From: Horticoccus luteus
GTDB lineage: Bacteria > Verrucomicrobiota > Verrucomicrobiia > Opitutales > Opitutaceae
Direction: 5' to 3'
Assembly: GCF_019464535.1 (NCBI RefSeq)
Contig: NZ_CP080507.1
Span: 300,001-332,000, forward strand
DNA: 32,000 bases
The notes below the pieces were generated by a model that saw only the letters and a list, made by a program, of their open reading frames with translations, ran no database searches and was not told the DNA's origin. Position numbers and translations under genes: made by a program. Positions 1,975 to 17,191 of the stretch are shown here, one piece after another (position 1 is the stretch's first letter; every line of letters starts with the position of its first letter).

Positions 1975-2841
1975 CTAGGCGGAAGCGCCGCGTTGGGCAG
2001 CCTCACGCCACGCGCTGGCATACTCGCGGCGCGCGATCAACACGTCGTCCCACACGGGCGGGTTGGTGCTGACGTGATAGCCGTGGCTCATCCCGAGTTC
2101 CGGGCAGACCCAGAGTTCGGCGGGGCGTTTCGGCCCGGCGAGCCAGAGGGCGAAGAGGTCCACGACGAACGCCCGATAGTCGATGAATTCCGGAGTCAGG
2201 CGTCCGCGGCCGTTGCTGACCGGCACCTGGCAGTGCTGGGAATTGAAGGGCCGGAGGTGGAAAAGTTGCGAATGTTGGATGAGCTTGGGCCAGACCAAAA
2301 GCCGCCGCGAATAATCGGCGGGTTGCACATGCTTCGAAACCGCGAAATGCGAATGATCCCACGTCACCGGCATGAGGCGACCCGTGGCCCGGCGAAACAG
2401 CCGGGCGATTTCGTCGAATTTCTCCGGCGTTTCCGTCGCTGTGTCGCGGTGGGTTTCAATATGCGGCCGCAGTCCGAGGGCGGCGCCGAGTTCCACGACC
2501 TTGACCGCGAGGGCGGCGGCGGTCGCGGGCGGGGTGTCGTGGTTCAAAAGCTGGACGTTCAGCAGCTCGACACCAAGGTCGAGATTGAGCTGCAATTGCT
2601 CGCGGGCCCGGCGCACGTTCCCGCAGTCGAAGCCGCCCATGACGAGGAGGCCGAATTGGTCCGCAAGCCGGCGAACCTCGGGCGAGGCGAGGGTGGCGAC
2701 GCCGTCGAAACCGGCTTCCTTGATGGCGGCGAATTTGCGTTCGAGGGACCATTCCCGCTTCGCGGAAGGAAGGCCGATCATCGACCAAGTCGATGCGCAT
2801 TGGATGAGACGCGGGGTCGTGGGAGCAGGGGTGGGTTTCAT
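1975..2841 (-). CDS. Sugar phosphate isomerase/epimerase-like protein (xylose-isomerase-like TIM barrel)
   Basis: 288-aa ORF with family-typical text (KFAAIKEAGFDGV, HIETHRDT, WDHSHF). It is divergent from the T1 gene. The + ORF 1969.. covering it is an upstream extension artefact. Confidence 0.75.
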   Translation of the reverse strand: MKPTPAPTTPRLIQCASTWSMIGLPSAKREWSLERKFAAIKEAGFDGVATLASPEVRRLADQFGLLVMGGFDCGNVRRAREQLQLNLDLGVELLNVQLLNHDTPPATAAALAVKVVELGAALGLRPHIETHRDTATETPEKFDEIARLFRRATGRLMPVTWDHSHFAVSKHVQPADYSRRLLVWPKLIQHSQLFHLRPFNSQHCQVPVSNGRGRLTPEFIDYRAFVVDLFALWLAGPKRPAELWVCPELGMSHGYHVSTNPPVWDDVLIARREYASAWREAAQRGASA

Positions 2842-2850
2842 ACTGAATTT

Positions 2851-2866
2851 TCAGCGAAAATGCTGA
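2851..2866. promoter_or_regulatory. Imperfect palindrome TCAGCgaaaatGCTGA in the AT-rich divergent intergenic region; candidate operator
   Basis: The 72-bp intergenic region 2842..2913 lies between divergent genes. It is much more AT-rich than its surroundings and contains 5-bp inverted half-sites. A LacI regulator is encoded nearby. Binding is not shown. Confidence 0.25.
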
Positions 2867-2913
2867 TTGAATTACAGAAATACACCAGCCTAAGCTCAAA
2901 ATTCCCCGCCGGC

Positions 2914-4842
2914 ATGAAAACGAACGCTGCTTTCTCCCTTATCCTTGTAAGTTGCTGGCTGGCCGTCGCCGGGGTGGCTCGAGCGGCGGAAGCGCGTCCG
3001 CTTTCGCTGGCGGATGCGGACATTGCGCAACGGTTCGTGACGCGGCGCGAGCTGGTGCTGAAAGAAACCGCGGCGGGCATCGATCCGGCCGATCCATCCA
3101 AGGGCGGCTTTTTGAACGTCGCCGCGTGCCTGCAGCGGGGTGAAAACCGGGCCGCGGCGCTCGCGCGATTCGCGAAGCTCAACGAGCCGATGCCGGTGGA
3201 TAACATGTTTTGGGTCTATCCGATGGTGACGGTGATGTTGACCGGGCACGACAACCTCGATGCGGCGAGCTGGGCGCGCATTCGCGAGCTGTGGAAGATT
3301 TATTGGCCGAGCCGGGGGGACACCGAAAATCACTGGGTGATTTCCTACGCCGGGCTTTATCTGGCGGCGCAAACCCTCCCGCCCGCGGGCGGCGATCAAT
3401 GGTTCAACGGCCAGTCTTCCGCCGAAAACATGAAAGAGGCGCGTGATTACTTGCTGCACTGGATCGACGTGACGACCGCTTACGGCCAGGGCGAATACGA
3501 CTCGCCCAACTACATCGAGGAATACGCGATGCCGCTCAGTTTGCTGGCGGGGTGGTCCAAGGATCCGGTGCTGCGCGAGAAGGCGCGGATGCTGTTGGAC
3601 TATATTTTCTATGATTTCGTCGTCGAGCAAGTCGACGGCTACTACGGCGGCGCGCACAGCCGCGTCTATCCGAAGCAAGCGGTGGCGCCCGGCCGCACGC
3701 CGAGCTCGGCGCTGGCGTGGCTCCTGTTCGGGTTGGGTGACCGCCAAGCGGGCGCCGGAGCGACGGTGGTCGCGCTCAGCGGCTACACGCCGCCCCCGAT
3801 TTTGGAACGCATCGCACGCGACATGACGGTGCGACCCTACGTCGAACGCGAACTCAAGCGCACGCGCTGGCGGCTGCGGCACGCGGGCCCGGATTCCTTT
3901 GTGATCGGCGACAAGCGCACCGTGCCGGTCTATAAATACAGCTACGTGGATCGCGACTTCGTCCTCGGCTCGTCGCAAGGCGGCTTGTTGCAACCGATCC
4001 AGCAGCAGACGTGGAGCCTCGTGTGGCGCACGGACAAGAGCACGGCCGATGCGGCCAACACGTTTTTCGGGGTGCAGCCGAGCTCGTCGGCCTTGGAAGG
4101 CGCGATGTATTTCGGGGGCGACGCTGACACGCTGGCGAACCTGATTGCGCGCTCGAAGGCGGACTACGATTCGCCGGATAAACTCACGGGCGGCTCGCCT
4201 TATGAGCAGGTGTTTCAGGACGGCACGGCGTTGATCGCGCTCTACGACATCGCGCCGGGGGCGCGATTCCCGCATATCACGACGTTTTTCTCGCGCGATC
4301 TCACGGGGGTCGACGAAGACAAATCCGGGTGGATTTTCGCGCAAGGCGGACCCGTTTACATCGCTTACCGGCCGTTGGCGCCGGGCGAGTGGAAGCCCTA
4401 CGACTGGACGGGACTTTTGCGCCACGGCGGGGGCGGCTGGATCAGCGCGGGTTTTGCGGACTGGGGCACGGGCCACCGCTGCTACGTGAGCTCACAATTG
4501 CGCAACGGCTACGTGGTGCAGGTGGCGCCCACGCGGGATTACGCGAGCTTCAACGCGTTCAAATCGGCGGTGCGCGCGTTGCCGCTGACATATTCGACGA
4601 AGGACAAACCCCAGGTGACGTTCACCGCGCTCGGAGGCCAACGCCTGCAGGCGCGTTACGGCGAGCCACCGACAGTCGACGGAAAATCGCCGGACTACGC
4701 GCACTGGCCGTTGTTTGACGGCCCGTTTGCGCACGAAGCGCGCGGCAGCGGCAAACTCGACCTGCGCCACGGGGGCGAGCGCTTGCTGCTCGATTTCAAC
4801 CACACCCGCACTGAGGAGTCCGCCACCGCGGTCCAGCCATGA
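2914..4842 (+). CDS. Secreted ~640-aa protein of unassigned family, paralog T1 (helix-rich N-half, beta-rich C-half; candidate glycan-active enzyme)
   Basis: Start chosen at MKTNAAFSLILVSCWLAVAGVARAAEA (signal peptide), in frame with track ORF 1969..4842. Motifs shared with T2/T3: GDTENHW, NGxSSAENxxEARxYLxxWxDxTTxxGQGEYxSPxYIxEY, SPYEQVFQD, ALYDIAPG, FFSxDL..EDxSGWIFAxGG..YxAYRPLAP. I cannot assign a named family. Confidence 0.8.
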   Translation: MKTNAAFSLILVSCWLAVAGVARAAEARPLSLADADIAQRFVTRRELVLKETAAGIDPADPSKGGFLNVAACLQRGENRAAALARFAKLNEPMPVDNMFWVYPMVTVMLTGHDNLDAASWARIRELWKIYWPSRGDTENHWVISYAGLYLAAQTLPPAGGDQWFNGQSSAENMKEARDYLLHWIDVTTAYGQGEYDSPNYIEEYAMPLSLLAGWSKDPVLREKARMLLDYIFYDFVVEQVDGYYGGAHSRVYPKQAVAPGRTPSSALAWLLFGLGDRQAGAGATVVALSGYTPPPILERIARDMTVRPYVERELKRTRWRLRHAGPDSFVIGDKRTVPVYKYSYVDRDFVLGSSQGGLLQPIQQQTWSLVWRTDKSTADAANTFFGVQPSSSALEGAMYFGGDADTLANLIARSKADYDSPDKLTGGSPYEQVFQDGTALIALYDIAPGARFPHITTFFSRDLTGVDEDKSGWIFAQGGPVYIAYRPLAPGEWKPYDWTGLLRHGGGGWISAGFADWGTGHRCYVSSQLRNGYVVQVAPTRDYASFNAFKSAVRALPLTYSTKDKPQVTFTALGGQRLQARYGEPPTVDGKSPDYAHWPLFDGPFAHEARGSGKLDLRHGGERLLLDFNHTRTEESATAVQP

Positions 4843-5855
4843 AACTGCCCCCCGTATTTTCGTTCGCCGCCCTGAGTCTCGCGTTCGCCGGTTCGATCGC
4901 ATGTGCCGCGGAACCGGCGCCGACGGCGCATCGGCTCTACACTGCCGTGGCGATGACCGGGCAACAGCACAACACCTCGGTGCCGACCGATTCCGGACTC
5001 TATTTCCGTGAAGGCGCGAACCAGTGGGCGCATTTTGGTCCGCGCGTGCTGGGCGTGATGACCGTCGCGGTCGATCCGCGCGATCCGCAGGTGTCGCTGA
5101 TCGCGAGTGCGGATGGCGTGGTGCGGTCGGCGGATGGCGGCCGGACTTGGCGCAAGACGACTGGTTGGGAAGTGGCGGATGTGCGCGCCATCGTCTTTGA
5201 CGAGCAACGCCCCGAGCTCGCTTATGCCGCGACCGCGTGGGGTCCGCTGCGATCGACGGACGCGGGTGCCACGTGGCAGCTCGCGCAAAAAGGTTTGCCG
5301 CGGTTGTATGGTCAGACGCTGGTCGTGGAGCCGCAGGGCCGTATTTTACTCGGCACGGAGAAAGGGTTGTTCGCCTCCACCGATCGCGCGCAGTCGTGGC
5401 ACGCGCTGACGTTTCCCGAGGTCTCGGTGCTGCGGCTCGCGCAAAGCCGCGCGGATGCCAAGGTGCTCGTGGCCGGCACGGAAGGGCGCGGCGCGTGGTT
5501 GTCGCGCGACGGAGCGAAAACGTGGACGCAAATTTCCCACGTGCCCGCGACCGCGAATGTCTATGCGGCGGCGGCGGACCCGTTGGATTCGCAACGGCTC
5601 GCGGTCGGCGGTTGGAGCATCGGCGTGCGCTGGTCGAACGACGGCGGCGCCACGTGGCGCGATGCGACGGCGGGGCTGCCGGCCGGCAACGTGTTCGCGC
5701 TCGCTTTCGATCCCGACCACGCCGGCCGCTTGTGGGCGGGAGTCTTTGAGCGCGGCATTTACTATAGCGACGATGACGGCGCGTCGTGGATCGCCGACGG
5801 TCTGGACGGCGCCTACGTATTCGATTTCGTCTTCGCCGCGGCGCCCACGAAGTAA
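4839..5855 (+). CDS. Secreted BNR/Asp-box repeat beta-propeller protein, paralog B1
   Basis: 338 aa with an N-terminal signal peptide. Six Asp-box (SxDxGxTW) repeats: SADGGRTW, STDAGATW, STDRAQSW, SRDGAKTW, SNDGGATW, SDDDGASW. Its ATG overlaps the T1 stop (ATGA at 4839-4842). Confidence 0.85.
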   Translation: MKLPPVFSFAALSLAFAGSIACAAEPAPTAHRLYTAVAMTGQQHNTSVPTDSGLYFREGANQWAHFGPRVLGVMTVAVDPRDPQVSLIASADGVVRSADGGRTWRKTTGWEVADVRAIVFDEQRPELAYAATAWGPLRSTDAGATWQLAQKGLPRLYGQTLVVEPQGRILLGTEKGLFASTDRAQSWHALTFPEVSVLRLAQSRADAKVLVAGTEGRGAWLSRDGAKTWTQISHVPATANVYAAAADPLDSQRLAVGGWSIGVRWSNDGGATWRDATAGLPAGNVFALAFDPDHAGRLWAGVFERGIYYSDDDGASWIADGLDGAYVFDFVFAAAPTK

Positions 5856-5989
5856 AATGACCGACCGGGGGCGCGACTTTCCGCGATGCGCAGCGCGCCG
5901 GGCGCGGCGACCGGAACATTGTTCGGCCAATGCGGTAACTGGGCCGCTCCGCGGTCGGCCGCCCTCTGCGGCGGCTCTTCACTTTTCTC

Positions 5990-8434
5990 ATGTCTGCAAC
6001 TCCTTTCGTTAATTCCGCCAGTTGGATTTGGTCCGCCGAGGGCTCGCACAGCGCTCCGGCGCCCGAGGCCGCGACGCCATCGCACTACCAGGTGCGCTAT
6101 TTTCGGCGCACGTTCGAGGTCGAGGATCCGACCGCGGCGACGTTGCGCGTGCAATTGTCGGCGGACAGCCGCTACCTGTTTTTTTGCAACGGCAACTTTA
6201 TCGGCCGCGGGCCGGCGAAGGGGGACATCAACCACCATTTCTACGACTCGTTTGATTTGACGCCGTATTTGCGCGCGGGGCGCAACGTCCTCGCGGCGCT
6301 CGTGCTCGACATGTCCCACGTGGCGCACCGTCCGGCATTGCTCGGGCCGCCGTGTTCGGTGATGACTTACACGGGCGGTTTCGTGCTGGAAGGCGAGTTG
6401 CGCGGGCGCACGGGGGAGACCGTGGCGGATTTGCGCACGGGCGCCGAATGGAGAGTGGCGGTGGACAAGGCGCATCGTTTTCAAAACGAGAACACGACCT
6501 TCGAGGGTTACCTCGGGTATTTCGAACATCGCCTGTCGGCGTTGATCCCTGCGGGGTGGAACACCGCCGATTTCGACGACTCGGCCTGGGCGGAGGCGCA
6601 CGTGTTGTTCAAAGCGGAGCTGCTCGAAAACCGCCGCGACCCGTCGAGCCCTTACGGTTTGCTGCCGCGCATGATTCCGATGCTGGAAGAGGGAACGCCG
6701 CAGATTTTTGCGGATGCGTTTCTCCAAGGCGGCGCGCCGGTGTCGGCCGAGTGGCAACGGTTGTTGATCGGCGACGCGGCGCTGACGCTGCCGGCGGGTG
6801 CGACCGTGGATGTGGTTCTCGACGTGGGCGAACTCACCACGGCGTTTCCGCATCTGCTCGTCGCGGGCGGCGCGGGGAGCGTGCTGCGGCTGACTTACGC
6901 GGAAGCGTTGCGGCTGCCGTGGAAGACGCCGAATGCCCAACTGATCGGCAAACAACAATCCCTCGCGAACCTCGCTTCGCATTTTGCCGACGAGAGCTCG
7001 GGCTGGACGTTCGATCGCCGCGGCAAGGTGACAGGCTGGGGCGACATTTGGGAACCGTCGGGCCAGGTGGAGCTTTTCGAGCCGCTGCACTGGCGGGCGT
7101 TTCGCTACATCGGCCTGCGGATCGTGGTCGGCGCGGAGCCGCTCACGTTGCGGGCGTTGCAACATCGGTTCACGGCCTATCCCTACCGCATCGCGGCGAA
7201 ATTTGAGTCGTCGGACGCCGCGTTGAACCGCATCTGGCCGGTCGCGTTGCACACGATGCGGTTGTGTTCGCACGAGACGTTTGAGGACTGCCCGCACTAC
7301 GAGCAGATGCAGTATGCGGGCGACACGATGATCACCTCGAAGATCGCGATGCTCACGACGGGCGATTACCGCCTGAGCAAGCAGGCGCTGCATCATTTCG
7401 ACTGGTCGCGGTTGTCCGATGGGTTGACGCAGAGCCGGTTTCCCTCGCGCCTCGTGCAGGTGATTCCCACGTGGTCGTTGCACTGGATCACCAACACCAA
7501 GGATTACGTGATGTGCTCGGGCGATCTCGGGACGGCGAAGGAGCTGCTGCCGGGCGTGCGCGCCGTGACGGACTGGTTCCGGCGGCACACGGATGCCAGC
7601 GGCCTGCCCGCGAAACTTCCGTATTGGAATATCACGGACTGGTGCCCGTGGTGGCCGCGCGGCGTCGTGCCCGGAGCGGACACCGGGCCGACGACGATTC
7701 TCAGCGCGCAATACATCCAGGCGTTGACGGAAGTCGCCTGGCTCGCGCGCTTGCTCGGGCGCGACAGCGAGGCCCGCGAGCTTGAGGCCGAGGCGATGAC
7801 GCTGCGGCCGAAGCTGCACGCGCTCACGTGGAGCGAGAGCGAAGGGCTTTACTTTGACCGGCCGGGCGGGCCGGAAGTCAGCCAATACGGCAACGCGTGG
7901 GCAATCGTGGCGGGCATCGCGGGCGAGCGCGAACGCCGCCGGATCTTCGAACGATTCCCCAATGATCCCAAACTCGCGCCGGGATCGTTTTTCTGGTGGC
8001 ACACGGGCTTCGCCGCGCTGGCCGCGGCGGGCCGGTTCGACGAGATGCCGCAACATCTCGGGCCGTGGCACGAGTCGATCGGCTTCGGCCTCTCGACGTT
8101 CGTGGAGGAGAACTCCTATTGGCGCTCGATGTGTCACGCATGGTCGGCGCATCCCGCGCTCGCGTTTCTGCAAGGCATCCTGGGCGTGACGCCGACGGCG
8201 CCGGGCTTCGCGGAGGTTTTGATCGCCCCGCAGCGCTGCGGACTCACGCATGCCTCCGGCCGCGTGTGCACGCCGCAGGGTGGCATCGACGTCGCGTGGC
8301 GGATGGAATCGGACCACGACTTCCGCCTCCAAATCACCACTCCGGCTTCGCTCGCCGTGACCGTGGTTGCACCCAATGGAGCCCGGCGATCCTTCGCCGG
8401 GGGAGCCTTTGCCGAAACGTTTTCCCTCACATGA
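5990..8434 (+). CDS. GH78-like alpha-L-rhamnosidase family protein (no signal peptide)
   Basis: 814 aa. The N-terminus is rhamnosidase-N-like (SWIWSAE...YFRRTFEV...YLFFCNGNFIGRGP...FDLTPYLRAGRNV). A six-hairpin catalytic-domain motif, ETFEDCPHYEQMQYAGD, is present. Confidence 0.75.
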   Translation: MSATPFVNSASWIWSAEGSHSAPAPEAATPSHYQVRYFRRTFEVEDPTAATLRVQLSADSRYLFFCNGNFIGRGPAKGDINHHFYDSFDLTPYLRAGRNVLAALVLDMSHVAHRPALLGPPCSVMTYTGGFVLEGELRGRTGETVADLRTGAEWRVAVDKAHRFQNENTTFEGYLGYFEHRLSALIPAGWNTADFDDSAWAEAHVLFKAELLENRRDPSSPYGLLPRMIPMLEEGTPQIFADAFLQGGAPVSAEWQRLLIGDAALTLPAGATVDVVLDVGELTTAFPHLLVAGGAGSVLRLTYAEALRLPWKTPNAQLIGKQQSLANLASHFADESSGWTFDRRGKVTGWGDIWEPSGQVELFEPLHWRAFRYIGLRIVVGAEPLTLRALQHRFTAYPYRIAAKFESSDAALNRIWPVALHTMRLCSHETFEDCPHYEQMQYAGDTMITSKIAMLTTGDYRLSKQALHHFDWSRLSDGLTQSRFPSRLVQVIPTWSLHWITNTKDYVMCSGDLGTAKELLPGVRAVTDWFRRHTDASGLPAKLPYWNITDWCPWWPRGVVPGADTGPTTILSAQYIQALTEVAWLARLLGRDSEARELEAEAMTLRPKLHALTWSESEGLYFDRPGGPEVSQYGNAWAIVAGIAGERERRRIFERFPNDPKLAPGSFFWWHTGFAALAAAGRFDEMPQHLGPWHESIGFGLSTFVEENSYWRSMCHAWSAHPALAFLQGILGVTPTAPGFAEVLIAPQRCGLTHASGRVCTPQGGIDVAWRMESDHDFRLQITTPASLAVTVVAPNGARRSFAGGAFAETFSLT

Positions 8435-9309
8435 AATCCCTGCGTCTGCATCACGAAGCCGGTCGCGCGGTGGCGGTGGCGTTGGCCGGCGAGGCCGGCG
8501 CGCCGGAAGCGCTGCTTTGCCGGTATGTCTATGCGAGCGCGGAGGCGGCCAATGAATCGCCGCGCCCGTATTTTCACCCGTTGAATTCGCTCGCGGGCGA
8601 TACGTTGACGAATTTCCGGCCCAACGATCATCCGTGGCACCACGGCCTCAGCCTTACGGTAAATCACGCGGGCACCGCGAATTTCTGGGGCGGACCGACC
8701 TGCCTGCGGCCCGACGGTTACCAGTGGCGCGACGACCACGGCGCGCAACATCATCTCGAGTGGTCGACGCTGGCCGCCGAGGGCGCCACCGCGACGCTGG
8801 CGCACACGCTCGCCTGGCGCCGGAGCGGGGAAACGATTTTCACGGAACGCCGCGAAATCGTCCTCGCGCTCGATGCGGCCGGTCACGCCTGGTCGTTGCA
8901 CTGGCGCAGTGCGCTGCGCAACGCGACGACGCGGGACCTCGCGCTCGGCAATCCGAGCTCCGCGGGCGGTCTGGCGGGTTCGCACTACACGGGGTTGCAG
9001 TTTCGCGGCGCGCGGGCGCTGCTCGACGATCACCTCGACAAGACCATCGAGATCATCGCGGAAGGCGGCCTCACGGGAGAAAAGGCCGTGCACGGCGCGA
9101 AAGCCGGTTGGATGGAGTGGCACGCGCAGAGCGATACGACGCTGCACCGCGTGAAAATCCGTTTCACCAACAACAGCGGGCCGCTGCAGTGGTTTGTGCG
9201 TCGCGGATATCCGCTCGCGGCATTTCCTTTCCAGGCAGATCAGGATTATGTCTTGGCGCCGGGCGCGACCCTGTCGCTCGACCACACCCTCACGTTCACC
9301 CAATCATGA
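8431..9309 (+). CDS. DUF6807 / PmoA-like family protein
   Basis: Start at MKSLRLHH (ATG 8431) overlaps the GH78 stop (ATGA). The family-typical segment is RPYFHPLNSLAGDTLTNFRPNDHPWHHGLSLTVNHAGTANFWGG. The track ORF 7996.. is an upstream extension. Confidence 0.7.
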   Translation: MKSLRLHHEAGRAVAVALAGEAGAPEALLCRYVYASAEAANESPRPYFHPLNSLAGDTLTNFRPNDHPWHHGLSLTVNHAGTANFWGGPTCLRPDGYQWRDDHGAQHHLEWSTLAAEGATATLAHTLAWRRSGETIFTERREIVLALDAAGHAWSLHWRSALRNATTRDLALGNPSSAGGLAGSHYTGLQFRGARALLDDHLDKTIEIIAEGGLTGEKAVHGAKAGWMEWHAQSDTTLHRVKIRFTNNSGPLQWFVRRGYPLAAFPFQADQDYVLAPGATLSLDHTLTFTQS

Positions 9310-10604
9310 CTATTGATCGCAAAACGTTTCTGCGCGGACTCGGCGTCGGCGCCATCGGCACCTTCGCCGCGCCGGCTTTGCTGGCCGGCCACTCTTCGAA
9401 GGAGGCGTCGTCGACGGCGGTGAAGCTGCCGGCCTTCGATGCCAGCGGTCCGGAGCCGTTCTGGGCCGCAGTGCAGGCGAGTTACGTGATCGAACCGCCG
9501 CTCATGTATTTCAACACCGGCGGCCTCGGCCCCGCGCCGCGCCGGGTGCTGGATATCTTCACTCGCACGATGATGGCCCACCAGCGTGTTTCTGATACGG
9601 GTCACGATCTTTTCGACGGCGCCCGCGAAGAAGTGGCGAAGTTTTTCGCCGTGAAACCGGAGGAGGTTTGTTTCACGCGCAACGCCACCGAAGGCAACTC
9701 GATCGTCGCGGCCGGCCTGCGGCTGGCGAAGGGCGATGAAGTGATTTTCGAATCGCACGCGCATCCCGGCGGCTCGTTTCCGTGGGTCAATCAACAGCAG
9801 TTGAACGGGATCGTCGTGAAGCTGTTCGATCCTGATCCGGCGAGCCCGGAAGGAAATCTTGAGCGGATCAAGGCGTTGATCACGCCGCGCACCAAGGTGA
9901 TTCAAGTCAGCCACGTCACCGCCCCGACGGGGATCGTGTTTCCCGTGGCGGAGATCGCGAAACTGGCCCGCCAGCACGGCGCGTGGTTTCACATCGATGG
10001 CGCGCAGTCGGCGGGCATGTTTCCGTTCGGATTGCGCGACACCGGCTGCGATTCGTTCGCGACGAGCGGTCACAAATGGCTCGGTGGGCCGCACGAAACG
10101 GGGATCTTTTATGTGCGACATGAGCGGCAGGACACGCTCGCGCCGATCGAGGTGGGCGCGTATTCCGGCGAGCTGCCGTTTTTGCCGGGCACGTTGAAAT
10201 ACGTGGATTCGGCGGTGCGCTACGAATACGCGACCCGCAGCGCCGCGAGCATCGTCGCTCTCGCCGAGGCCTTGCGGTTTCAGGAGGAGATCGGGCGGGA
10301 ACGCATCGCCGCGCACGGGCGGGCGCTGGCGGAGCAGTTGCGGGCCGGCCTCGCGAAAATTCCCGATGTGGAAATTCTCACGCCCACGCGCCCCGAGATG
10401 CGCGGGTCAATCACCACCTTTCGCTCGTCCCGGCTACCCTACGATAAATTGTTCGGCGAGTTGTGGGGCAAATACCATTGCCGCTGCCGGCCGGTGAGCG
10501 AGCAGAAGCTCGACGCGTTGCGCGTGTCGACGCATTCGTTCAACTCGCCCGCGCAAGTCGATCATCTGCTCGAGGGCATCACCACGGTGTTGCGCAAGGC
10601 GTGA
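9306..10604 (+). CDS. Aminotransferase class V-fold PLP-dependent enzyme with a Tat-like signal peptide
   Basis: Start at MTIDRKTFLRGLGVGAIGTFAAPALLAGHS (an RK variant of the twin-arginine motif) overlaps the previous stop (ATGA 9306-9309). A PLP-lysine context, SGHKWLGGPHETG, is present, and the layout is class-V-like. Confidence 0.85.
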   Translation: MTIDRKTFLRGLGVGAIGTFAAPALLAGHSSKEASSTAVKLPAFDASGPEPFWAAVQASYVIEPPLMYFNTGGLGPAPRRVLDIFTRTMMAHQRVSDTGHDLFDGAREEVAKFFAVKPEEVCFTRNATEGNSIVAAGLRLAKGDEVIFESHAHPGGSFPWVNQQQLNGIVVKLFDPDPASPEGNLERIKALITPRTKVIQVSHVTAPTGIVFPVAEIAKLARQHGAWFHIDGAQSAGMFPFGLRDTGCDSFATSGHKWLGGPHETGIFYVRHERQDTLAPIEVGAYSGELPFLPGTLKYVDSAVRYEYATRSAASIVALAEALRFQEEIGRERIAAHGRALAEQLRAGLAKIPDVEILTPTRPEMRGSITTFRSSRLPYDKLFGELWGKYHCRCRPVSEQKLDALRVSTHSFNSPAQVDHLLEGITTVLRKA

Positions 10605-10663
10605 CGGCGTTGCGGCGCAGTCGAGTGCAGGCCACCCCCGCGGCTGCCGCCCGCCGGGTGCGT

Positions 10664-11191
10664 TCAGTCGGCGACTTCGACGAGCATCTCAACTTCGACC
10701 AGCGCGTTGCCGGGCAATGCCGCGACGCCGACCGAGGCGCGCGCATGCCGGCCGCGCTCGCCGAAGGCGGCGACGAGCAGATCGGAGGCGCCATTCACGA
10801 CCTTCGACTGGCCGGTGAAATCGTCGGTGCAATTCACAAAGCCGCCGACGCGGACCACGCGTTTCACGCGGGCGAGTTCGCCGATTTCCGTTTTCAACGC
10901 GCTGAGCAACTGCACCGCGCACACGCGCGCGGCCGCGGCCGCCTGGGCTTCGGTGGCGTCGCGACCGACTTTGCCGGTGATCAGGCCGCCGGCGGGATCG
11001 CGGGGGATTTGGCCCGCGAGAAACACCAGCGAGCCGGTGCGCACGGCGGGCACGTAGTTCGCGATGGCGGCGGGCGCGGTGGACAGCGTCACGCCTTGGG
11101 CGGAGAGGCGCTGCTCCGGCGTGGTCTCGGCCGCGTGCACGGCGGCGGCCCACATCACACTGCACAGGATCATGGCCAGGCGCTTTTTCAT
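10664..11191 (-). CDS. RidA/YjgF/UK114-family protein with signal peptide
   Basis: Start chosen at MKKRLAMILCSVMWAAAVHAAE (cat at 11189-11191), inside track ORF 10664..11266. RidA-like text: YVPAVRTGSLVFLAGQIP...RASVGVAALPGNALVEVEMLVEV. It is convergent with the PLP enzyme gene. Confidence 0.85.
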   Translation of the reverse strand: MKKRLAMILCSVMWAAAVHAAETTPEQRLSAQGVTLSTAPAAIANYVPAVRTGSLVFLAGQIPRDPAGGLITGKVGRDATEAQAAAAARVCAVQLLSALKTEIGELARVKRVVRVGGFVNCTDDFTGQSKVVNGASDLLVAAFGERGRHARASVGVAALPGNALVEVEMLVEVAD

Positions 11192-11252
11192 GTGGCGCGG
11201 ACTCAAAGCGCTCCTCCCGGCGGCGCGCAACGTTAGAAACCTTTTTACCCTT

Positions 11253-12290
11253 ATGCCTCTTCTCAAACCTGGTGTCCTGTTCGCTGTAGCGCTCGCCGTG
11301 GGGGCGAGTGCCGCGGCGGCGCCGCACGAGCTCTACGTCTGCGCGAGCGTGAACGACAATTACGTCATCGGCTCGACCTACGTGACCATGAGCGGACTCT
11401 TCCGGCGCGGCGGAGACGGCCAGTGGCAGCACGTCGGTTTCAACGACGTCGGCTTGATGGCGGTCTCGTTTGATCCGCGCGATCACCGCACGTTTTACAC
11501 GGCTACGTTGAACGGCTGCGTGCGGACGTTTGACGGCTACGACCACCTGCGGGTCACCACGGGGTGGGACGTCACGGAGCCGCGGGATGTGTGCGTGGAC
11601 CCGAATGCGCCGGACACCGTTTACCTCGCGTTGCCGGACGGCGTGGTCGTGACGACCAACAAAGGCGATACGTGGGAACGCCGCGAACACGGCCTGCCAA
11701 CGCGGGGGAAATACACGCAGACGATCGAGGTCGACCGCACACGGGCGGGGCGCGTCCTCGCGGGTTGCGAGAAGGGTATTTTTCTGACCGAGGATGCCGG
11801 CAAAAACTGGCGCCAGGTGTTGGCCACGGTCGACGCCGTCCTCGACGTGCAGCAATCGCCGCACGATCCCGCGCAATGGTTCGCGGTCTCGCAAAGCGCG
11901 GGTGCCTGGCGCTCGGCGGACGGCGGTGCGACGTGGGCGCAGGTGGGTGGCGTGCCCAAAGCGAAGGCGTTTTATAACGTGAGCTTCGACGCGACCAATC
12001 CGCAGCGGCTCGTGCTCGGCGGCTACACGTATGGTGTGCTGACGTCGGAAGATGGCGGGCGCACGTGGACGGAACGCAACGCGGGCCTCCCGGCCGGACA
12101 CCACGTGTGGCGCGTCGCAGTGGACCCGGATGACGGGCGGATTTACGCCGCCGTGCGCAGCGATTCAATTTACGTGTCCGCCGATTTTGGTCGCACGTGG
12201 AAAGCCGCCGGACTGCCCGGCTCGCAGGTGGCTGAATTTGTGTTTGTGCCCGCCGCGACGAATTCAACCCCCGCCCGCTCCTCGCGATGA
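11253..12290 (+). CDS. Secreted BNR/Asp-box repeat beta-propeller protein, paralog B2
   Basis: Start at MPLLKPGVLFAVALAVGASAAAA. Asp-boxes: TTNKGDTW, TEDAGKNW, SADGGATW, SEDGGRTW, SADFGRTW, plus one degenerate. It is collinear with B3 along its whole length. Confidence 0.85.
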   Translation: MPLLKPGVLFAVALAVGASAAAAPHELYVCASVNDNYVIGSTYVTMSGLFRRGGDGQWQHVGFNDVGLMAVSFDPRDHRTFYTATLNGCVRTFDGYDHLRVTTGWDVTEPRDVCVDPNAPDTVYLALPDGVVVTTNKGDTWERREHGLPTRGKYTQTIEVDRTRAGRVLAGCEKGIFLTEDAGKNWRQVLATVDAVLDVQQSPHDPAQWFAVSQSAGAWRSADGGATWAQVGGVPKAKAFYNVSFDATNPQRLVLGGYTYGVLTSEDGGRTWTERNAGLPAGHHVWRVAVDPDDGRIYAAVRSDSIYVSADFGRTWKAAGLPGSQVAEFVFVPAATNSTPARSSR

Positions 12291-14176
12291 AATCCGTCAC
12301 GTTTCTCACCGTTCTTTTCAGTTTGGCCACGGCACTGACCGCGGGGGCGCAGCCCTCTTTTTCCGGGCCGCCGCCCTCGCGCACTGTCGTGCACGACGCG
12401 AGCGTGCGCCGCGCGCAATACCTGCAACGCATCAACGAAGCCCTCGACTGGCGGATTGCGGCGATTGATCGCCAGAACGTCGCCGGGACCGTCGATCTCG
12501 CGGCCGTCAGCGCGTTGCTGGCGCGCCATCAGGACATCGAGTTGTGTAATCAACGCGTCATCGAATTGATGAAGACGCCCGGCAGCGGACCGTTCTGGAT
12601 GTTTCCGACGGTCTGCGTGTCCTTCCTCGGGCGCGATCAACTTTCCGCCGAGGCGAAAGCGGCCATCCGCACGGCGTGGAAATCTTTCCAGATTCGGGGC
12701 GACACCGAGAATCATTGGGCGATGTATTACACTTCGGTCTATCTCATGAGTGAGCTTTATCCGAACGATCCCGCCGAGTCGTGGTTCAACGGGAAAAGCT
12801 CCGCCGAGAATCGGGCGGAAGCGCGCGCTTATTTGATCAGTTGGATGGATCTCGCCACGACCGTCGGGCAGGGCGAATACAATCCCTCCCACTACATCGG
12901 AGAATACGCGATTCCGATGATGTTGATGGCGCGGTGGGCGCAGGATCCAGCCATGCGGCAGCGCGGTCATATGATGCTGGACTGGATTTTCGCGGGTCTC
13001 GCGGAGAGCACGCTGAACGGTGTGTTGCACGGGCCGAACTCGCGCACGGACGAAGGCTCGGTCGTCGAGCGGTGGAATGCGCTCGCATCGGTTTTTAGCT
13101 GGGTGCTTTTCGGCAACACGCCGCCGATCGCGGGCTACGGCGGGTGGGGCAACTATTTCATGGCGATTGCGGACAGCTATGAAGTGCCCGCGGTGATTTA
13201 TCTCATCGCCACCGATCGGTCGGCGCCGTTTCTGCAGCGCGACCTCGCCCGCAGCCGCCGGCGGTGGCGCTACAGCGCCGAGTTGTTCATGCCGGTGTAT
13301 AAAACCAATTACACGACGAAGCATTACGCCGTCGGCTCCTATCAAGGCGGCATTTCCGATCCGATTCAGACGCATGTGTGGGACGTGACGTGGGACGTCA
13401 CGGATCCGCGCGGCATTCACAACACGATGTTCTCGCTGCATCCGTTGGCGTCGAACCACGTCCTGCAGATGTATTTCTCGGAACTGCCCGACACGATGGC
13501 CCAAGACATCACGAAACAGGGCAAGCCTTCCTACACCCTGGCGGGGAAAATCGTCGGCTGTTCGCCCTACGAGCAGGTGTTTCAAGATCTCGATACGGTG
13601 GTCGCCCTCTACGATATCGCGCCGGGCGTCGAGTTTCCGCAGGTGAACGGGTTTTTCTCCAAGGACCTCATCAACGTGACCGAGGACCAGTCGGGGTGGA
13701 TTTTCGCCGAGGGGGGCGACACCTACCTCGCCTACCGGCCGCTCGCGCCTTACCATTGGGAAGCGTATCGGCACTTCGACGGTGGGTGGGCGGCGAAACA
13801 GGAGGAGATTGGCGGCCGGTTGCTCGTCAGCCCGCACCTGAAAAACGGCACGATCGTGCAGGCGGCGTCGGCGTTCGACTTCAAGGATTTCGAGGACTTC
13901 AAGAACGCGATCCGGCGTTTGCCCGTGGAGTTCAGCCTCAAGCCGAAGCCGGCGGTGAAGATGATGACCTTGCGCGGACATGACATCGTCGTGACCTATG
14001 GCGAAGCGCCGACGCGCGACGGGGAGAAGATCGATTACGCGAAGTGGAAGCTTTTCGAGGGTCCGTATCTCAACGCGGAGAAGAATTCGAAACGCCTCGT
14101 CATCACGCACGGCGCTTTGCAACGCGTGCTCGATTTCAACACCCTGACCATCGCCGACACCGTCACCCAACCCTGA
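12287..14176 (+). CDS. Secreted protein of unassigned family, paralog T2
   Basis: 629 aa with signal peptide MKSVTFLTVLFSLATALTAGA. It carries the same motif set as T1/T3. Its ATG overlaps the B2 stop (ATGA 12287-12290). Confidence 0.85.
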   Translation: MKSVTFLTVLFSLATALTAGAQPSFSGPPPSRTVVHDASVRRAQYLQRINEALDWRIAAIDRQNVAGTVDLAAVSALLARHQDIELCNQRVIELMKTPGSGPFWMFPTVCVSFLGRDQLSAEAKAAIRTAWKSFQIRGDTENHWAMYYTSVYLMSELYPNDPAESWFNGKSSAENRAEARAYLISWMDLATTVGQGEYNPSHYIGEYAIPMMLMARWAQDPAMRQRGHMMLDWIFAGLAESTLNGVLHGPNSRTDEGSVVERWNALASVFSWVLFGNTPPIAGYGGWGNYFMAIADSYEVPAVIYLIATDRSAPFLQRDLARSRRRWRYSAELFMPVYKTNYTTKHYAVGSYQGGISDPIQTHVWDVTWDVTDPRGIHNTMFSLHPLASNHVLQMYFSELPDTMAQDITKQGKPSYTLAGKIVGCSPYEQVFQDLDTVVALYDIAPGVEFPQVNGFFSKDLINVTEDQSGWIFAEGGDTYLAYRPLAPYHWEAYRHFDGGWAAKQEEIGGRLLVSPHLKNGTIVQAASAFDFKDFEDFKNAIRRLPVEFSLKPKPAVKMMTLRGHDIVVTYGEAPTRDGEKIDYAKWKLFEGPYLNAEKNSKRLVITHGALQRVLDFNTLTIADTVTQP

Positions 14177-14185
14177 ACTTACGTT

Positions 14186-15205
14186 ATGAAAACCAAACAC
14201 AAACTGCGCTGGCTGGCCGGCTGGGCGCTCTTGACGAGTGCCGCTCTCGCGGCGGCTCCGGCCTACGATTTCTACCTGTGCGCGTCCGTGAATAAAGGCT
14301 ACGTCACGGGCTCGAAGATCACGACCGTGAGCGGGCTGTTCCAGCGCGAGGCCGATGGCACGTGGCACCACATCGGCTACAACGACATGAGCATCGCCGC
14401 CGCGGCGTTTGATCCGCGCGATCACAACGTCATCTACACGGCCGCGCTCAACGGCTGCTGGCGCACGCTCGATGGCGGCAAGACCTGGCGGCAAACCAAC
14501 GACTGGACGATCACCGAGGGCCGCGACATCGCGGTCGATCCGCACGCGCCGGATCACGTTTATCTCGCGTTGCCCGACGGGGTCGCGGTTTCGCAGGACC
14601 GTGCGGAGACCTGGACGCGCCGCGAAAACGGATTGCCGGAACGCGGCAAATACACGCAGACGATCCGGGTCGATCGCAGCCAGGCCGGCCGCGTGCTGGC
14701 GGGTTGTGAGACGGGGATTTATCTGACGGAAAACGGCGCGGAATCCTGGCGGCGCGTGCTGCCCACGACCGATACCGTCGATGATATTCAGCAAAGCTAC
14801 CATGATCCCAAAACGTGGATCGCGGTCACCCAAAGCGCGGGCGCATGGATGTCGCACGACGGCGGCGCGACGTGGGCCAAACTCGACGGCGTGCCCTCCG
14901 AACACACGCTCTACAACGTGACCTTCGATCCGCGCAACCCGCAGCGGATCGCGCTGGGCGGCTGGGACGCCGGCGTGCTGACGTCGGAAGACGGCGGGAA
15001 AACCTGGGCGAATCGCACGGCCGGATTACCCGCTCCGCACCACGTCTGGCGCGTCGGGATCGATCCTGACAACGGGCTGCTTTACGCCAGCCTGACGAAG
15101 CAGACGCTCTTCACTTCCGCCGACTTCGGTCGCACGTGGAAAGCGGGACCGTTCGAAGACTCGGCCATCAACAACTTCATCAGCCTGCCCCGGGCAGAGA
15201 AATAA
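14186..15205 (+). CDS. Secreted BNR/Asp-box repeat beta-propeller protein, paralog B3
   Basis: 339 aa with a signal peptide. Asp-boxes: TLDGGKTW, SQDRAETW, TENGAESW, SHDGGATW, SEDGGKTW, SADFGRTW. Confidence 0.85.
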   Translation: MKTKHKLRWLAGWALLTSAALAAAPAYDFYLCASVNKGYVTGSKITTVSGLFQREADGTWHHIGYNDMSIAAAAFDPRDHNVIYTAALNGCWRTLDGGKTWRQTNDWTITEGRDIAVDPHAPDHVYLALPDGVAVSQDRAETWTRRENGLPERGKYTQTIRVDRSQAGRVLAGCETGIYLTENGAESWRRVLPTTDTVDDIQQSYHDPKTWIAVTQSAGAWMSHDGGATWAKLDGVPSEHTLYNVTFDPRNPQRIALGGWDAGVLTSEDGGKTWANRTAGLPAPHHVWRVGIDPDNGLLYASLTKQTLFTSADFGRTWKAGPFEDSAINNFISLPRAEK

Positions 15206-15222
15206 TCGGGAGAGCCATCAAC

Positions 15223-17106
15223 GTGAAAATTACCATCCCCGTCCTGTGTGCCTTGTTCGCGGCCTCGCTGTTGCCGGCGACTGGCCAACCCTCCTTTGAA
15301 GGTCCGATGCCGGACCGCCACGTGGTCACCGATGCCAACGTGCGGCGGCAGGACTACAACCGCCGGGCGGACGAAGTTGTGAACTGGTATGCGGCCCAAG
15401 CGAAGCCGGGCCAAGACCTCGGCGTCGGCCAGATTCTGGCCAAACTCGTGCGCCATGAGGACGAACCGCAGGTCTCCCAAAGTGTGATCGCCCTGATGAA
15501 GGATCCCGGCACGGGACCGTTCTGGATGTTTCCGGTCGTGGGCATTTCGATGCTGGGACAAGACCAGCTTTCCCCGGCCGCGAAGAAGGCGATTCGCGAC
15601 ATGTGGCGCACCACTTACCAAGTGCGCGGCGACACCGAGAATCACTGGTTGATGTATTACACGTCGCTTTACCTGATCGCCGAACAGAATCCCAACGAGC
15701 CGGCCAACACCTGGTATACGGGCAAAAGCTCGGCGGAGAATCTCGCGGAGGCGCGCAGTTATCTGATCAGTTGGATGGATCTCACGACCACGGTGGGGCA
15801 GGGCGAATTCACGCCGACCGGCTACATCGCGGAATATTCCATTCCCCTTTTGTATCTGGCGACGTGGGCCAAGGACCCCGCGATGCGCCAACGCGGGCAG
15901 ATGATGCTCGACTGGCTGTATGCGGAGCTCGCGGAGAACACGCTCAACGGCGTGTTGCACGGGCCGAATTCCCGCACTGATGAACGCGAAGTGGTGGAGC
16001 GCGGCAATACCGCGGCGTCGTTTTACTGCTGGCTGCTTTTCGGCAACACGGTGCCGCCGCAGGCTTACGGCGGGTTTGGCATCTACTTCGCCGTGGCCGC
16101 GAAAAACTATCACGTGCCCGACGTGATCTACCACATCGCGGTGGAGCGGGATCGCGACTACACGCAACACGACCTGAAGCGCACGCGGCGCCGCTGGCGT
16201 TACAGCGATCAGCTCTCGCCCCCGGTTTACCGGACCAATTACACGCGCAAGGATTACGCGGTCGGCTCCATCCAAGGCGGCTTGATCGATCCGATCCAAA
16301 CGCACGTGTGGGATGTGACGTGGGACGTGCCGGACCCGCGCGGGGTGCACAACACGATCTTTTCGCTGCAGCCGTATTCCGCCAACCGGTCGATGCAGAT
16401 GTATTTCTCGGCGTATCCCGAGCTGATGATCCCCAACCTCGCCGTCGAAGGAAAGCCGAGCTACGACCTGTCCACGAAAGTGATCGGCAGCTCGCCTTAC
16501 GAGCAGGTGTTTCAGGATCACGACACGGTCATTGCACTCTACAATATCGCGCCCGGCACGCGTTTCCCGCAGGTCAATGGATTCTTCTCGAAAGACCTGC
16601 AGAACGTCACCGAAGACAAGTCGGGCTGGATCTTCGCGCAAGGCGGCAAGACCTACCTGGCTTACCGTCCGCTCGCGGGCTACCATTGGGAGAAATATCA
16701 GCATCGCGACGGCGGTTGGGCGAAAGAGGTCAAGGACCTCGGCGACAAGCTCCTGATCAGCCCGCATCTGCAAAACGGCACGATCGTGCAGGCCGCGGAT
16801 GAATCGGAATTCAAAACGCTGGCCGAGTTCGCCGCCGCGATTCGCGCGCTCCCGCTGGAATTCAAGCTCGCGCCGGAGCCGACCGTGAAATTCACCACGC
16901 TCCGCGGCCACCAGATGGCGTTTACTTACGGCCAAACGCCCGTGCTCGACGGCAAGCCGGTGGATTACGCGGACTGGAAGCTCTTCCAGAGCCCTTATCT
17001 CAACGCCGAGAAGGGTTCGAAGCGGTTGACCATCACGCACGGCGAACTCGAACGCGTGCTCGATTTCAACACGCTGACGATCACGGATCGCGTGCGCGAA
17101 CCGTAA
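15223..17106 (+). CDS. Secreted protein of unassigned family, paralog T3
   Basis: GTG start chosen at VKITIPVLCALFAASLLPATG. This gives a signal peptide, lies after the B3 stop, and has a gggagag Shine-Dalgarno-like sequence about 9 nt upstream. It is in frame with track ORF 15136... It is very similar to T2 throughout. Confidence 0.8.
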   Translation: MKITIPVLCALFAASLLPATGQPSFEGPMPDRHVVTDANVRRQDYNRRADEVVNWYAAQAKPGQDLGVGQILAKLVRHEDEPQVSQSVIALMKDPGTGPFWMFPVVGISMLGQDQLSPAAKKAIRDMWRTTYQVRGDTENHWLMYYTSLYLIAEQNPNEPANTWYTGKSSAENLAEARSYLISWMDLTTTVGQGEFTPTGYIAEYSIPLLYLATWAKDPAMRQRGQMMLDWLYAELAENTLNGVLHGPNSRTDEREVVERGNTAASFYCWLLFGNTVPPQAYGGFGIYFAVAAKNYHVPDVIYHIAVERDRDYTQHDLKRTRRRWRYSDQLSPPVYRTNYTRKDYAVGSIQGGLIDPIQTHVWDVTWDVPDPRGVHNTIFSLQPYSANRSMQMYFSAYPELMIPNLAVEGKPSYDLSTKVIGSSPYEQVFQDHDTVIALYNIAPGTRFPQVNGFFSKDLQNVTEDKSGWIFAQGGKTYLAYRPLAGYHWEKYQHRDGGWAKEVKDLGDKLLISPHLQNGTIVQAADESEFKTLAEFAAAIRALPLEFKLAPEPTVKFTTLRGHQMAFTYGQTPVLDGKPVDYADWKLFQSPYLNAEKGSKRLTITHGELERVLDFNTLTITDRVREP

Positions 17107-17191
17107 GAATCGCCGCGTTGCCGCGCCGCCTGCCCGAGCAGGCTGGCGCGGCGCACCGGCTCCTGTATCGGTGCGTTTGCCCTTTCTTTCC

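Follow-up and report, generated by a model that had tools for sequence, protein, structure and literature searches.

Paired genes for a T-family protein and a single BNR propeller in a glycan-utilisation locus of Horticoccus luteus: a candidate two-component extracytoplasmic enzyme

Gene content of the locus

We have analysed a 32,000-nt stretch of Horticoccus luteus DNA (contig NZ_CP080507.1, positions 300,001 to 332,000; hereafter the window), in which three pairs of adjacent genes each encode a predicted secreted protein of 627–642 aa, here called T, and a predicted secreted BNR/Asp-box beta-propeller of 338–345 aa, here called B. Translation bore out the pairs given in the initial annotation, T1-B1 (2914-5855), B2-T2 (11253-14176) and B3-T3 (14186-17106), with a correction to the start of T3. 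The pairs are paralogous, as had been proposed: T1 and T3 are 39% and 62% identical to T2, and B1 and B2 are 35% and 58% identical to B3. Four motifs said to be shared by the T proteins were recovered by regular expression in T1, T2 and T3 (GDTENHW, SPYEQVFQD, EDxSGWIFAxGG and, as the second of the four, GQGE[YF]xxxxYIxEY). The finding is real, and its first interpretation, in which T and B make up an undescribed glycan-processing module, is essentially supported. Judged by Pfam, NCBIfam and PDB, T-B makes a good candidate for a carbohydrate-active enzyme family of unusual, two-component build: the fold class is known, and the family and its obligate partner would be new.

The long open reading frame (ORF) of T3 opens at 15136, within B3. 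The most likely start is the GTG codon at 15223 (VKITIPVLCALFAASLLPATGQP...), 17 nt after the end of B3; the resulting signal peptide resembles that of T2.

Signal-peptide calls were made by inspection and from the hydropathy of 12-residue N-terminal segments. The three T proteins, the three B proteins and the M28 peptidase begin with hydrophobic segments (hydropathy 1.65–2.48), while the GH78, GH51, GH127 and GH36 enzymes (GH, glycoside hydrolase family) have values of 0.49–1.12 and no signal-like segment; both the family assignments, confirmed by Pfam, and the division between exported and cytoplasmic proteins agree with the earlier description. The further claim that T and B are the only exported proteins besides the receptor and the peptidase does not stand: the class-V pyridoxal phosphate (PLP) enzyme has a Tat-like N-terminal signal (DRKTFLRGLGVGAIG...), and the RidA-like protein has a Sec-type signal.

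Two of the T/B junctions are ATGA stop/start overlaps, as had been noted (T1/B1 at 4839-4842 and B2/T2 at 12287-12290). The same overlap is found at three other junctions, GH78/DUF6807 (8431-8434), DUF6807/PLP enzyme (9306-9309) and GH51/GH127 (18694-18697). It is thus a general property of the operon, and we reject its use as specific evidence for a T-B complex.

The coding strand of the locus is the plus strand, and the G+C content across the window is 60–69%. The genes follow in the order TonB-dependent receptor (minus), LacI-family regulator (minus), TIM-barrel-like protein (minus), T1-B1, GH78, DUF6807, PLP enzyme, RidA-like protein (minus), B2-T2, B3-T3, GH51, GH127, M28, GH36 and a 710-aa membrane protein (Table 1). 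Long antisense ORFs of 735–911 aa cover T, B and other genes (on the minus strand 12170-14905, which is 911 aa long, 15082-17289 and 5813-8332); we discarded them as artefacts of high G+C (64%) because their translations are of low complexity and rich in Arg.

Table 1. Features of the analysed window (aa, amino acids; bits, Pfam scores; AF2, AlphaFold2)
Feature	Coordinates	Strand	Description
T1	2914-4842	+	642 aa, secreted (predicted); divergent T1 type, order T then B; no Pfam or NCBIfam match
B1	4839-5855	+	338 aa, secreted (predicted) BNR/Asp-box beta-propeller, partner of T1; Sortilin-Vps10 55 bits (cut-off 33)
B2	11253-12290	+	345 aa, secreted (predicted) BNR propeller, partner of T2; Sortilin-Vps10 59 bits, PSII_BNR 42.5 bits
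T2	12287-14176	+	629 aa, secreted (predicted) T-family protein; toroid + sandwich in the AF2 model
B3	14186-15205	+	339 aa, secreted (predicted) BNR propeller, partner of T3; Sortilin-Vps10 68.7 bits; six Asp-boxes
T3	15223-17106	+	627 aa from the GTG start, secreted (predicted) T-family protein; 62% identical to T2
GH78 alpha-L-rhamnosidase	5990-8434	+	No signal peptide; Bac_rhamnosid6H 89.6 bits
DUF6807 (PmoA-like)	8431-9309	+	180.8 bits; ATGA-coupled to GH78 and PLP enzyme
Class-V aminotransferase-fold PLP enzyme	9306-10604	+	Aminotran_5 187.8 bits; Tat-like signal
RidA/YjgF-like	10664-~11195	-	Sec-type signal; start approximate (Met at residue 26 of ORF 10664-11266)
GH51 alpha-L-arabinofuranosidase	17171-18697	+	Pfam; cytoplasmic (predicted)
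GH127 beta-L-arabinofuranosidase	18694-20634	+	338 bits; cytoplasmic (predicted)
M28 peptidase with PA domain	20653-22182	+	Pfam; exported (predicted)
GH36-type alpha-galactosidase (Melibiase)	22223-24400	+	Pfam; cytoplasmic (predicted)
TonB-dependent receptor, N-terminus	1-707	-	Plug 56.5 bits; signal peptide, poly-Thr linker; continues beyond the window; same place in L001
LacI-family regulator of the locus	818-1858	-	Pfam; conserved in L001
Conserved protein, ~267-288 aa	1975-2841	-	Between LacI and T1; 66% identical to an L001 gene
Polytopic membrane protein	24494-26626	+	710 aa; no Pfam match
DoxX	26882-27361		Downstream of the locus
IS110-family transposase	29434-30507	-	Downstream of the locus
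Phage-integrase-family recombinase	30655-31620	+	Downstream of the locus

Linkage and fusion of T and B

A genome scan with the T alignment A1 detected 78 loci, from Opitutales only; together with one further locus, L001, this makes 79 loci with 121 T genes. Cultured carriers are Oleiharenicola sp. Vm1, O. lentus and Horticoccus sp. 23ND18S-11. A same-strand B gene lies within a few hundred bases of T in 113 of the 121 cases, and the T genes that have no adjacent B are found either at contig edges (five) or inside tandem T arrays (three). The order of the two genes follows their type across the 79 loci: a T1-type gene always has a B1-type gene after it, and a T2/T3-type gene has a B2/B3-type gene before it. 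The copy number of T/B pairs ranges from one to three or more, and the pairs therefore duplicate as units. Some Opitutaceae arrays (L009, L034, L036 and L070) contain extra T genes that have no B of their own, e.g. B-T-T-T-B-T; here several T paralogues may share one B, or some T proteins may work on their own.

The pairing is kept in unrelated genomic contexts at 25–35% identity. In a low-GC locus (L081) a B gene, a T-B fusion and a T gene stand in a row; in a metagenome-assembled genome (MAG) of Calditrichota (L085) B is followed by T fused to the carbohydrate-binding module CBM9; one locus (L087) has the arrangement T-B-B-T with an ATGA overlap, and another (L088) has B followed by a T of an ‘EHE’ motif variant. 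In one more case (P0269) T is followed by a 330-aa gene, so that pairing is probable.

T and B are also found as parts of a single polypeptide. A B-specific hidden Markov model (HMM) identified a B domain in 21 of the 150 best T clusters (E-values down to 1e-116), in both the B-T and the T-B order, with linkers of a few residues in some of them. The named fusions come from MAGs of Acidobacteriota and Planctomycetota. MBI5280961.1 is an example of a natural fusion. One T-B fusion is present in nine sequences on many contigs and is therefore not an assembly artefact. A fused propeller was found to share 42% identity with B2/B3. We modelled an 875-aa fusion (P0246) with AlphaFold2 (AF2) and obtained a predicted local distance difference test (pLDDT) score of 93.9 and a predicted TM-score (pTM) of 0.89, with a linker of ~6 residues between toroid and propeller; the protein is modelled as a single body, which suggests a fixed T-B interface. 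A Foldseek search of the PDB gave no entry with a combined T plus propeller architecture. The co-occurrence of T and B, the strongest of our results, thus extends far beyond this genome and into distant lineages, and we consider it highly probable that T and B constitute one functional unit.

Sequence relatives of T

The initial annotation could not place T in a known family, and this is still the case after comparison with Pfam, NCBIfam and PDB, in which no confident HMM or sequence match to a characterised family was found. T1, T2 and T3 have no match in Pfam or NCBIfam. A Pfam scan of 33 diverse T members (23–63% identity) at E ≤10 gave spurious matches only, with none of Hepar_II_III_C, DUF4962, Alginate_lyase and Lyase_8 among them, and no relative was found among PDB sequences searched either with T2 (phmmer) or with a profile of the 33 members.

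The family is large. An exhaustive profile search with a cut-off of E ≤1e-3 collected 2,226 clusters (50% identity), and 225 of them reach E ≤1e-30. There are more than 1,000 close homologues of T; where they bear a name, it is ‘hypothetical protein’, and most of those with a taxon label belong to Opitutaceae or other Verrucomicrobiota. Carriers of T include Verrucomicrobiota, Acidobacteriota, Planctomycetota and Calditrichota. In some lineages T carries a fused CBM9, or CHB_HEX_C plus BACON, as would be expected for a catalytic module.

Two polysaccharide lyase (PL) families, PL33 and PL34, are known from Opitutaceae TAV5 (PMC6442616). PL33 was ruled out for T, which has no sequence similarity to PL33 structures. 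The exclusion of PL34 is indirect: PL34 and PL15 cluster together at E ≤1e-24 (PMC11890756), and T has no similarity to PL15. The literature searched, which dealt with GH127, GH51 and Opitutaceae, with enzymes that degrade extensin, with new PL families of Verrucomicrobia and with DUF6807, yielded no account of T, B or the locus.

Predicted fold and candidate active site of T

The AF2 model of T2 (pLDDT 89.6, pTM 0.89) has helices in residues 38–309 and strands in residues 315–626, and is clearly that of a helical toroid (~38–310) followed by a beta-sandwich (~315–626). The likeness to toroid-plus-sandwich enzymes that had been suggested from the sequence thus recurs in the predicted structure, at the level of the fold only. 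In a Foldseek comparison with the PDB the model had 26 matches at E ≤1e-3, of which 25 are lyases of the class that combines a toroid with an antiparallel beta-sandwich: PL35 (8khv/8khw, with 1.2e-6 for 8khv), PL15 (3a0o), PL12 (4mmh/5jmd), PL33 (8r6z), PL39 (6jp4) and PL8 (1rw9/2brv). The single non-lyase is the dermatan-sulfate epimerase 6hzn. Matches to the PL35, PL15, PL12, PL33, PL8 and PL39 structures have probability 1.0 and E-values from 1e-6 to 3e-4.

In the diverse alignment (33 members; residue numbers are those of T2) G169, E197, W365, S426 and Q433 are invariant, and R48, E141, W166, W186, G194, Y203, D220, G249, R253, R328, S351, E429, Y442 and W471 are conserved in at least 90% of the members. 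In the lyases of this fold a catalytic Asn, often beside a His, is followed by a Tyr 52–57 residues later and by a His 130–166 residues after the Tyr (PMC12088678, Table 4). The corresponding pattern of T2 is N142-H143, Y203 (+60) and H363 (+160). Conservation of these and two further positions is uneven: E197 33/33, E141 32/33, Y203 31/33, N142/H143 28/33 and H363 23/33. In five of the 33 members N142/H143 are replaced, so that E-N-H reads E-H-E. E141/N142/H143, Y203 and R253 lie at the starts of successive helices in the T2 model and would be expected to line one face of the toroid. The candidate catalytic residues of T2 are E141, N142, H143, E197, Y203, R253, R328 and H363.

T has the same domain order as the PL35 GAGases (8khv/8khw), the PL15 enzyme Atu3025 (3a0o), PL12 heparinase III, PL33 BT4410, PL39, PL8 and dermatan-sulfate epimerase 1 (6hzn). 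It carries a putative Asn-His...Tyr...His pattern with a spacing comparable to that in the lyases, is likewise exported (as predicted from its signal peptide) and is encoded, as they are, in glycan-utilisation loci. Unlike them, T has neither their Pfam domains nor detectable sequence similarity to them (HMMER profile and hhalign); its candidate His of the beta-domain is not invariant, and two glutamates exceed the putative triad in conservation. Moreover, these lyases are single polypeptides, whereas T is nearly always paired with, or fused to, a propeller.

The B propeller

B is one BNR propeller of the GH74/Ycf48 type. Pfam assigns Sortilin-Vps10, BNR and PSII_BNR to it, the last with 42.5 bits for B2 and 39.1 bits for B3 (cut-off 27) and 20.1 bits for B1. 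The earlier count of six Asp-boxes per protein holds for B1 and B3; B2 has five canonical boxes and a degenerate one. Absence of a sialidase-type FRIP motif was confirmed in B1, B2 and B3 with the regular expression [FYW]R[IV]P. A search of PDB with the B-family profile gave GH74 xyloglucanase propellers (E 1.5e-22), as well as 3b7f, DAIP, Ycf48 and sortilin. The propeller of the modelled fusion superposes best on 3b7f, Ycf48 and DAIP (target-normalised TM-score 0.58–0.64), and also on single GH74 domains, with a Foldseek E-value of about 1e-10 for GH74. These relatives are seven-bladed. Two acidic residues, D96 and E175, are invariant in B, and H62, R93 and Q203 are also conserved.

Several assignments were considered for B and rejected. 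It is not a GH74 enzyme, being a single propeller of 338–345 aa that lacks the second propeller needed for the cleft. Ycf48/HCF136 is excluded by scores of 21–31 against a cut-off of 326 for the NCBIfam equivalog PRK13684, and the host is a non-photosynthetic heterotroph. GH33 sialidase is excluded by the missing FRIP motif and by BNR_2 scores of at most 19 bits (cut-off 31.4), and the F510_1955 glycosylhydrolase model of NCBIfam (NF045728) by scores of 103–113 bits, in 3–4 partial stretches, against a cut-off of 175. Finally, B does not appear to be a PL42 (formerly GH145) L-Rha-alpha-1,4-GlcA lyase: no such protein was among the 53 PDB sequences matched at E ≤0.01, where we take structures of PL42/GH145 to be present.

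B is homologous to one seven-bladed BNR propeller of GH74 (examples are 1sqj, 2cn3 and 3a0f). The GH74 enzymes comprise two tandem propellers (~750 aa), with a catalytic Asp contributed by each, whereas B has one propeller with ~310 mature residues. Their cleft lies between two large domains, an architecture that could also hold for B plus T, with the difference that the second domain of GH74 is a propeller and the partner of B is a toroid/sandwich protein. The best fold matches of B, i.e. Ycf48/HCF136, the dispase-autolysis-inducing protein DAIP and the structural-genomics protein 3b7f (Reut_B4987), are propellers of about its size that stand alone; Ycf48 and DAIP function through binding to a partner, either a protein or a peptide. 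B differs from all three in being encoded in a glycan-utilisation locus and genetically locked to T.

Genomic neighbourhood

Neighbours were counted in the loci with enough flanking sequence. Upstream of T/B we found GH78 in 31, DUF6807 in 30 and the PLP enzyme in 31 of 38 loci; downstream, M28 was present in 38, GH127 in 27, GH51 in 14 and GH36 in 3 of 46 loci. The conserved core in Opitutaceae is GH78-DUF6807-PLP enzyme-(RidA)-B-T-M28, with GH127 and GH51 as facultative members. L001 has the same arrangement as the window with one B-T pair, plus an SSF transporter, and its gene assigned to YjgF_endoribonc/Ribonuc_L-PSP encodes a protein 65% identical to the RidA-like protein of the window. 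The initial emphasis on arabinan, extensin or AGP leaned on GH127 and GH51; the fact that these two are not constant weakens a purely extensin or arabinan reading of the substrate. The constant rhamnosidase, DUF6807 protein, exported PLP enzyme and aminopeptidase suggest instead a rhamnose-containing substrate with peptide or amine groups. More speculatively, the exported PLP enzyme, exported RidA and M28 peptidase may act in the periplasm on glycosyl-amino acids or amino sugars by beta-elimination.

The hydroxyproline-rich-glycoprotein system of Bifidobacterium longum and Xanthomonas, with extracellular GH121 and GH43, an importer and a cytoplasmic GH127, is comparable in part (PMC7263609). 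In both cases a cytoplasmic GH127 (with or without an alpha-L-arabinofuranosidase) comes downstream of exported enzymes, and a peptide-bearing substrate is plausible for the locus. In contrast to that system, GH121 and GH43 are absent here, and GH127/GH51 are missing from many T/B loci. We also rejected the identification of T itself as a GH121 beta-L-arabinobiosidase. The GH121 fold is a central (alpha/alpha)6 barrel between N- and C-terminal beta-sandwiches, with a conserved Glu/Asp/Glu (PMC7263609); T has no N-terminal sandwich, and GH121 is not among the Foldseek matches of T2. In the comparisons made here and the literature searched, none of the described systems combines T-type and B-type components.

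Outside Opitutaceae, the low-GC locus L081 has as neighbours of T/B a Hepar_II_III_C protein with relatives in PL15 (3a0o) and PL35 (8khw) at E about 1e-13, as well as an SSF transporter, two PfkB kinases, an aldolase, a cupin, an aminotransferase and an amidohydrolase. The set includes catabolic genes of a sugar-acid type and fits an acidic, nitrogen-bearing glycan. The same locus (regions 1-8960 and 15566-17635) encodes unannotated proteins of about 796, 528 and 795 aa, of which the 795-aa one weakly matches (alpha/alpha)6 families including GH88 (E 0.0016).

Proposed function of T-B and alternatives

Our leading, still tentative, reading is that T-B is an extracytoplasmic carbohydrate-active enzyme in which T is catalytic and works by lyase chemistry. 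T and B would form one enzyme, made either from two adjacent genes or as one fused polypeptide, and located in Opitutaceae in the periplasm or at the cell surface. T, whose predicted fold is that of the Tyr/His polysaccharide lyases (PL8, 12, 15, 17, 21, 33, 35 and 39), is taken to be the catalytic subunit because its polar residues are strictly conserved and CBM9 or BACON modules are appended to it. The chemistry would most likely be a beta-elimination at a uronic-acid residue, with N142/H143 serving in carboxylate neutralisation and as base, Y203 as acid/base, H363 (Gln in T1-type proteins) as second base, and R253 and R328 binding the carboxylate. B would dock rigidly on T and line one side of the cleft as a substrate-binding wall, in analogy to GH74 with its cleft between two domains. 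A possible substrate is a rhamnose-containing, peptide- or amine-bearing acidic glycan of plant, algal or microbial origin, taken up via the TonB-dependent receptor; the exported M28 peptidase, the Tat-exported PLP enzyme and the RidA-like protein would trim the products in the periplasm, and the cytoplasmic GH78, with or without GH127, GH51 and GH36, would finish the fragments.

A number of observations weigh against this proposal. The Foldseek TM-scores are 0.25–0.43 at ~10% identity, values that support a fold-class assignment and not family membership. Comparison by hhalign of the T profile was insignificant both with the PL15/PL35-related Hepar_II_III_C protein of L081 and with a three-sequence mini-profile (that protein, 3a0o and 8khw) rebuilt from its alignments to 3a0o and 8khw. 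T1 and its subfamily have Gln at the position of H363 (QPIQQQTW at ~360 in T1, DPIQTHVW in T2), and the glutamates E141 and E197 are better conserved than the proposed triad; the Gln363 and E-H-E variants could mark subfamilies with a different substrate epimer preference or chemistry. The Opitutaceae loci have no unsaturated-uronyl hydrolase of GH88/GH105 and no KduI/KduD-type genes, and all their recognisable glycosidases act on neutral sugars. T was set apart from known families by Pfam, NCBIfam and PDB, a comparison that does not reach CAZy families having neither a Pfam model nor a structure, among which we count PL29, PL30, PL37 and PL40. The putative T-B complex, finally, is deduced from genetics and one AF2 fusion model. 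With H363 variable, the glutamates better kept and the hhalign comparisons insignificant, lyase chemistry is the leading hypothesis and is not established.

The glutamates are the starting point of a serious rival, which we regard as the less likely explanation: T could be a glycoside hydrolase on a lyase-type fold with E141 and E197 as acid/base, and with B still as its partner. Such an enzyme would release small neutral oligosaccharides (e.g. beta-L-arabino-oligosaccharides or rhamnosylated fragments) from a hydroxyproline-rich or other glycoprotein for the cytoplasmic GH127, GH51 and GH78, and would be a functional analogue of the extracellular GH121. E141 (32/33) and E197 (33/33) are the best-conserved polar residues, above N142/H143 or H363; the glycosidases of the locus are those of neutral sugars, with GH88 and GH105 lacking, and in the known pathway the cytoplasmic GH127 relies on an extracellular GH121 (PMC7263609), which is absent at the locus. 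Yet all the significant structural neighbours of T2 are lyases or an epimerase, with neither a hydrolase in general nor GH121 or another (alpha/alpha)6 GH family in particular among them, GH127 and GH51 are facultative neighbours only, and the conserved arginines R137, R253, R322, R324 and R328 suggest an anionic substrate. It is improbable, in our judgement, that T and B are co-regulated and physically independent, i.e. two enzymes or an enzyme and a binding protein that act sequentially on one glycan, with fusions being incidental. The generic nature of the ATGA overlaps would agree with this, as would the extra T genes lacking a B of their own in some arrays (L009, L034 and L036) and the resemblance of B to the stand-alone binding propellers Ycf48 and DAIP. 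The adjacency of B to 113 of 121 T genes, the duplication of pairs as units with T1-type/B1-type concordance, the recurrence of fusions in both orders and with very short linkers (21/150 clusters) and the pTM of 0.89 of the fusion model argue for the contrary.

Two further possibilities concern the division of roles between T and B. T-B might be a non-catalytic complex that captures glycan for the TonB-dependent receptor, in a role like that of SusD/E; to our knowledge SusD/E-like proteins are found in Bacteroidota and are missing from Verrucomicrobia. A receptor gene does stand at the start of the locus, T and B are both predicted to be exported, B resembles ligand-binding propellers and T-B has no known activity. 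We hold such a role to be quite improbable in view of the strict retention, across 23–63% identity, of polar residues typical of catalysis (E, Y, R, H, Q and S), of the CBM9 and BACON modules on T, which argue that T itself is not a binding module, and of the fused forms that occur also away from any receptor gene. Still more doubtful, and in our view scarcely credible, is an arrangement with B as the catalytic subunit, a propeller hydrolase similar to GH74 or sialidase, and T as an accessory or binding protein. The match of the B profile to GH74 propellers (E 1e-22), the naming of the nearest NCBIfam model as a glycosylhydrolase and the invariant D96 and E175 could be cited for it; on the other side, GH74 needs two propellers with a catalytic Asp from each and B is single, the FRIP motif is lacking, the NCBIfam score (103–113 bits) falls short of the cut-off (175), Ycf48 and DAIP, which are not enzymes, are among the closest folds, and T is the larger, more strictly conserved and CBM-bearing partner.

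A bolder version of the reading in which a lyase-fold T has B as its partner is that T-B founds an obligately two-subunit (or fused) family of carbohydrate-active enzymes with a joint active cleft and glycopeptide-type substrates, from which a periplasmic route of M28, the Tat-exported PLP enzyme as a beta-lyase and exported RidA would strip the amino-acid anchor. We rate this as unlikely; if true, it would mean a new CAZy family and, in addition, a pathway of deglycosylation in the periplasm that has not been described before.

Significance of the T family

With more than 2,000 clusters, the T family is invisible to annotation by Pfam, NCBIfam and PDB and is yet central to a conserved glycan locus of Opitutaceae. 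If T is catalytic, it defines a new family, either of polysaccharide lyases or of glycoside hydrolases, and would fill an unexplained extracellular step in carbon turnover by abundant soil and freshwater bacteria. Carbohydrate-active enzymes are nearly always single polypeptides, so the near-obligate pairing or fusion with a single BNR propeller is unusual, and T-B lends itself to testing whether two different folds can build one active site or substrate cleft. The exported PLP enzyme, RidA and M28 hint at glycopeptides or amino-acid-decorated glycans, which are poorly covered by enzyme catalogues.

Other features of the window

In the TonB-dependent receptor a run of ten threonines (TAKTTTTTTTTTTDAT) separates the signal peptide from the Plug domain. 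The product of the minus-strand gene between the LacI-family regulator and T1 has a weak likeness to xylose-isomerase-like TIM barrels (AP_endonuc_2, E 0.0015, below cut-off); AP_endonuc_2 genes also lie close to T/B genes in L080, which is from Acidobacteriota, and in L085 from Calditrichota. The C-terminal soluble part of the 710-aa membrane protein contains, by eye, an apparent internal duplication of ~90 aa (‘...V.VDGWA...R.PDV.Q...AGF...LP...’ occurring twice). Downstream of the locus and of DoxX, the region with the IS110-family transposase and the phage-integrase-family recombinase may be a mobile-element boundary.

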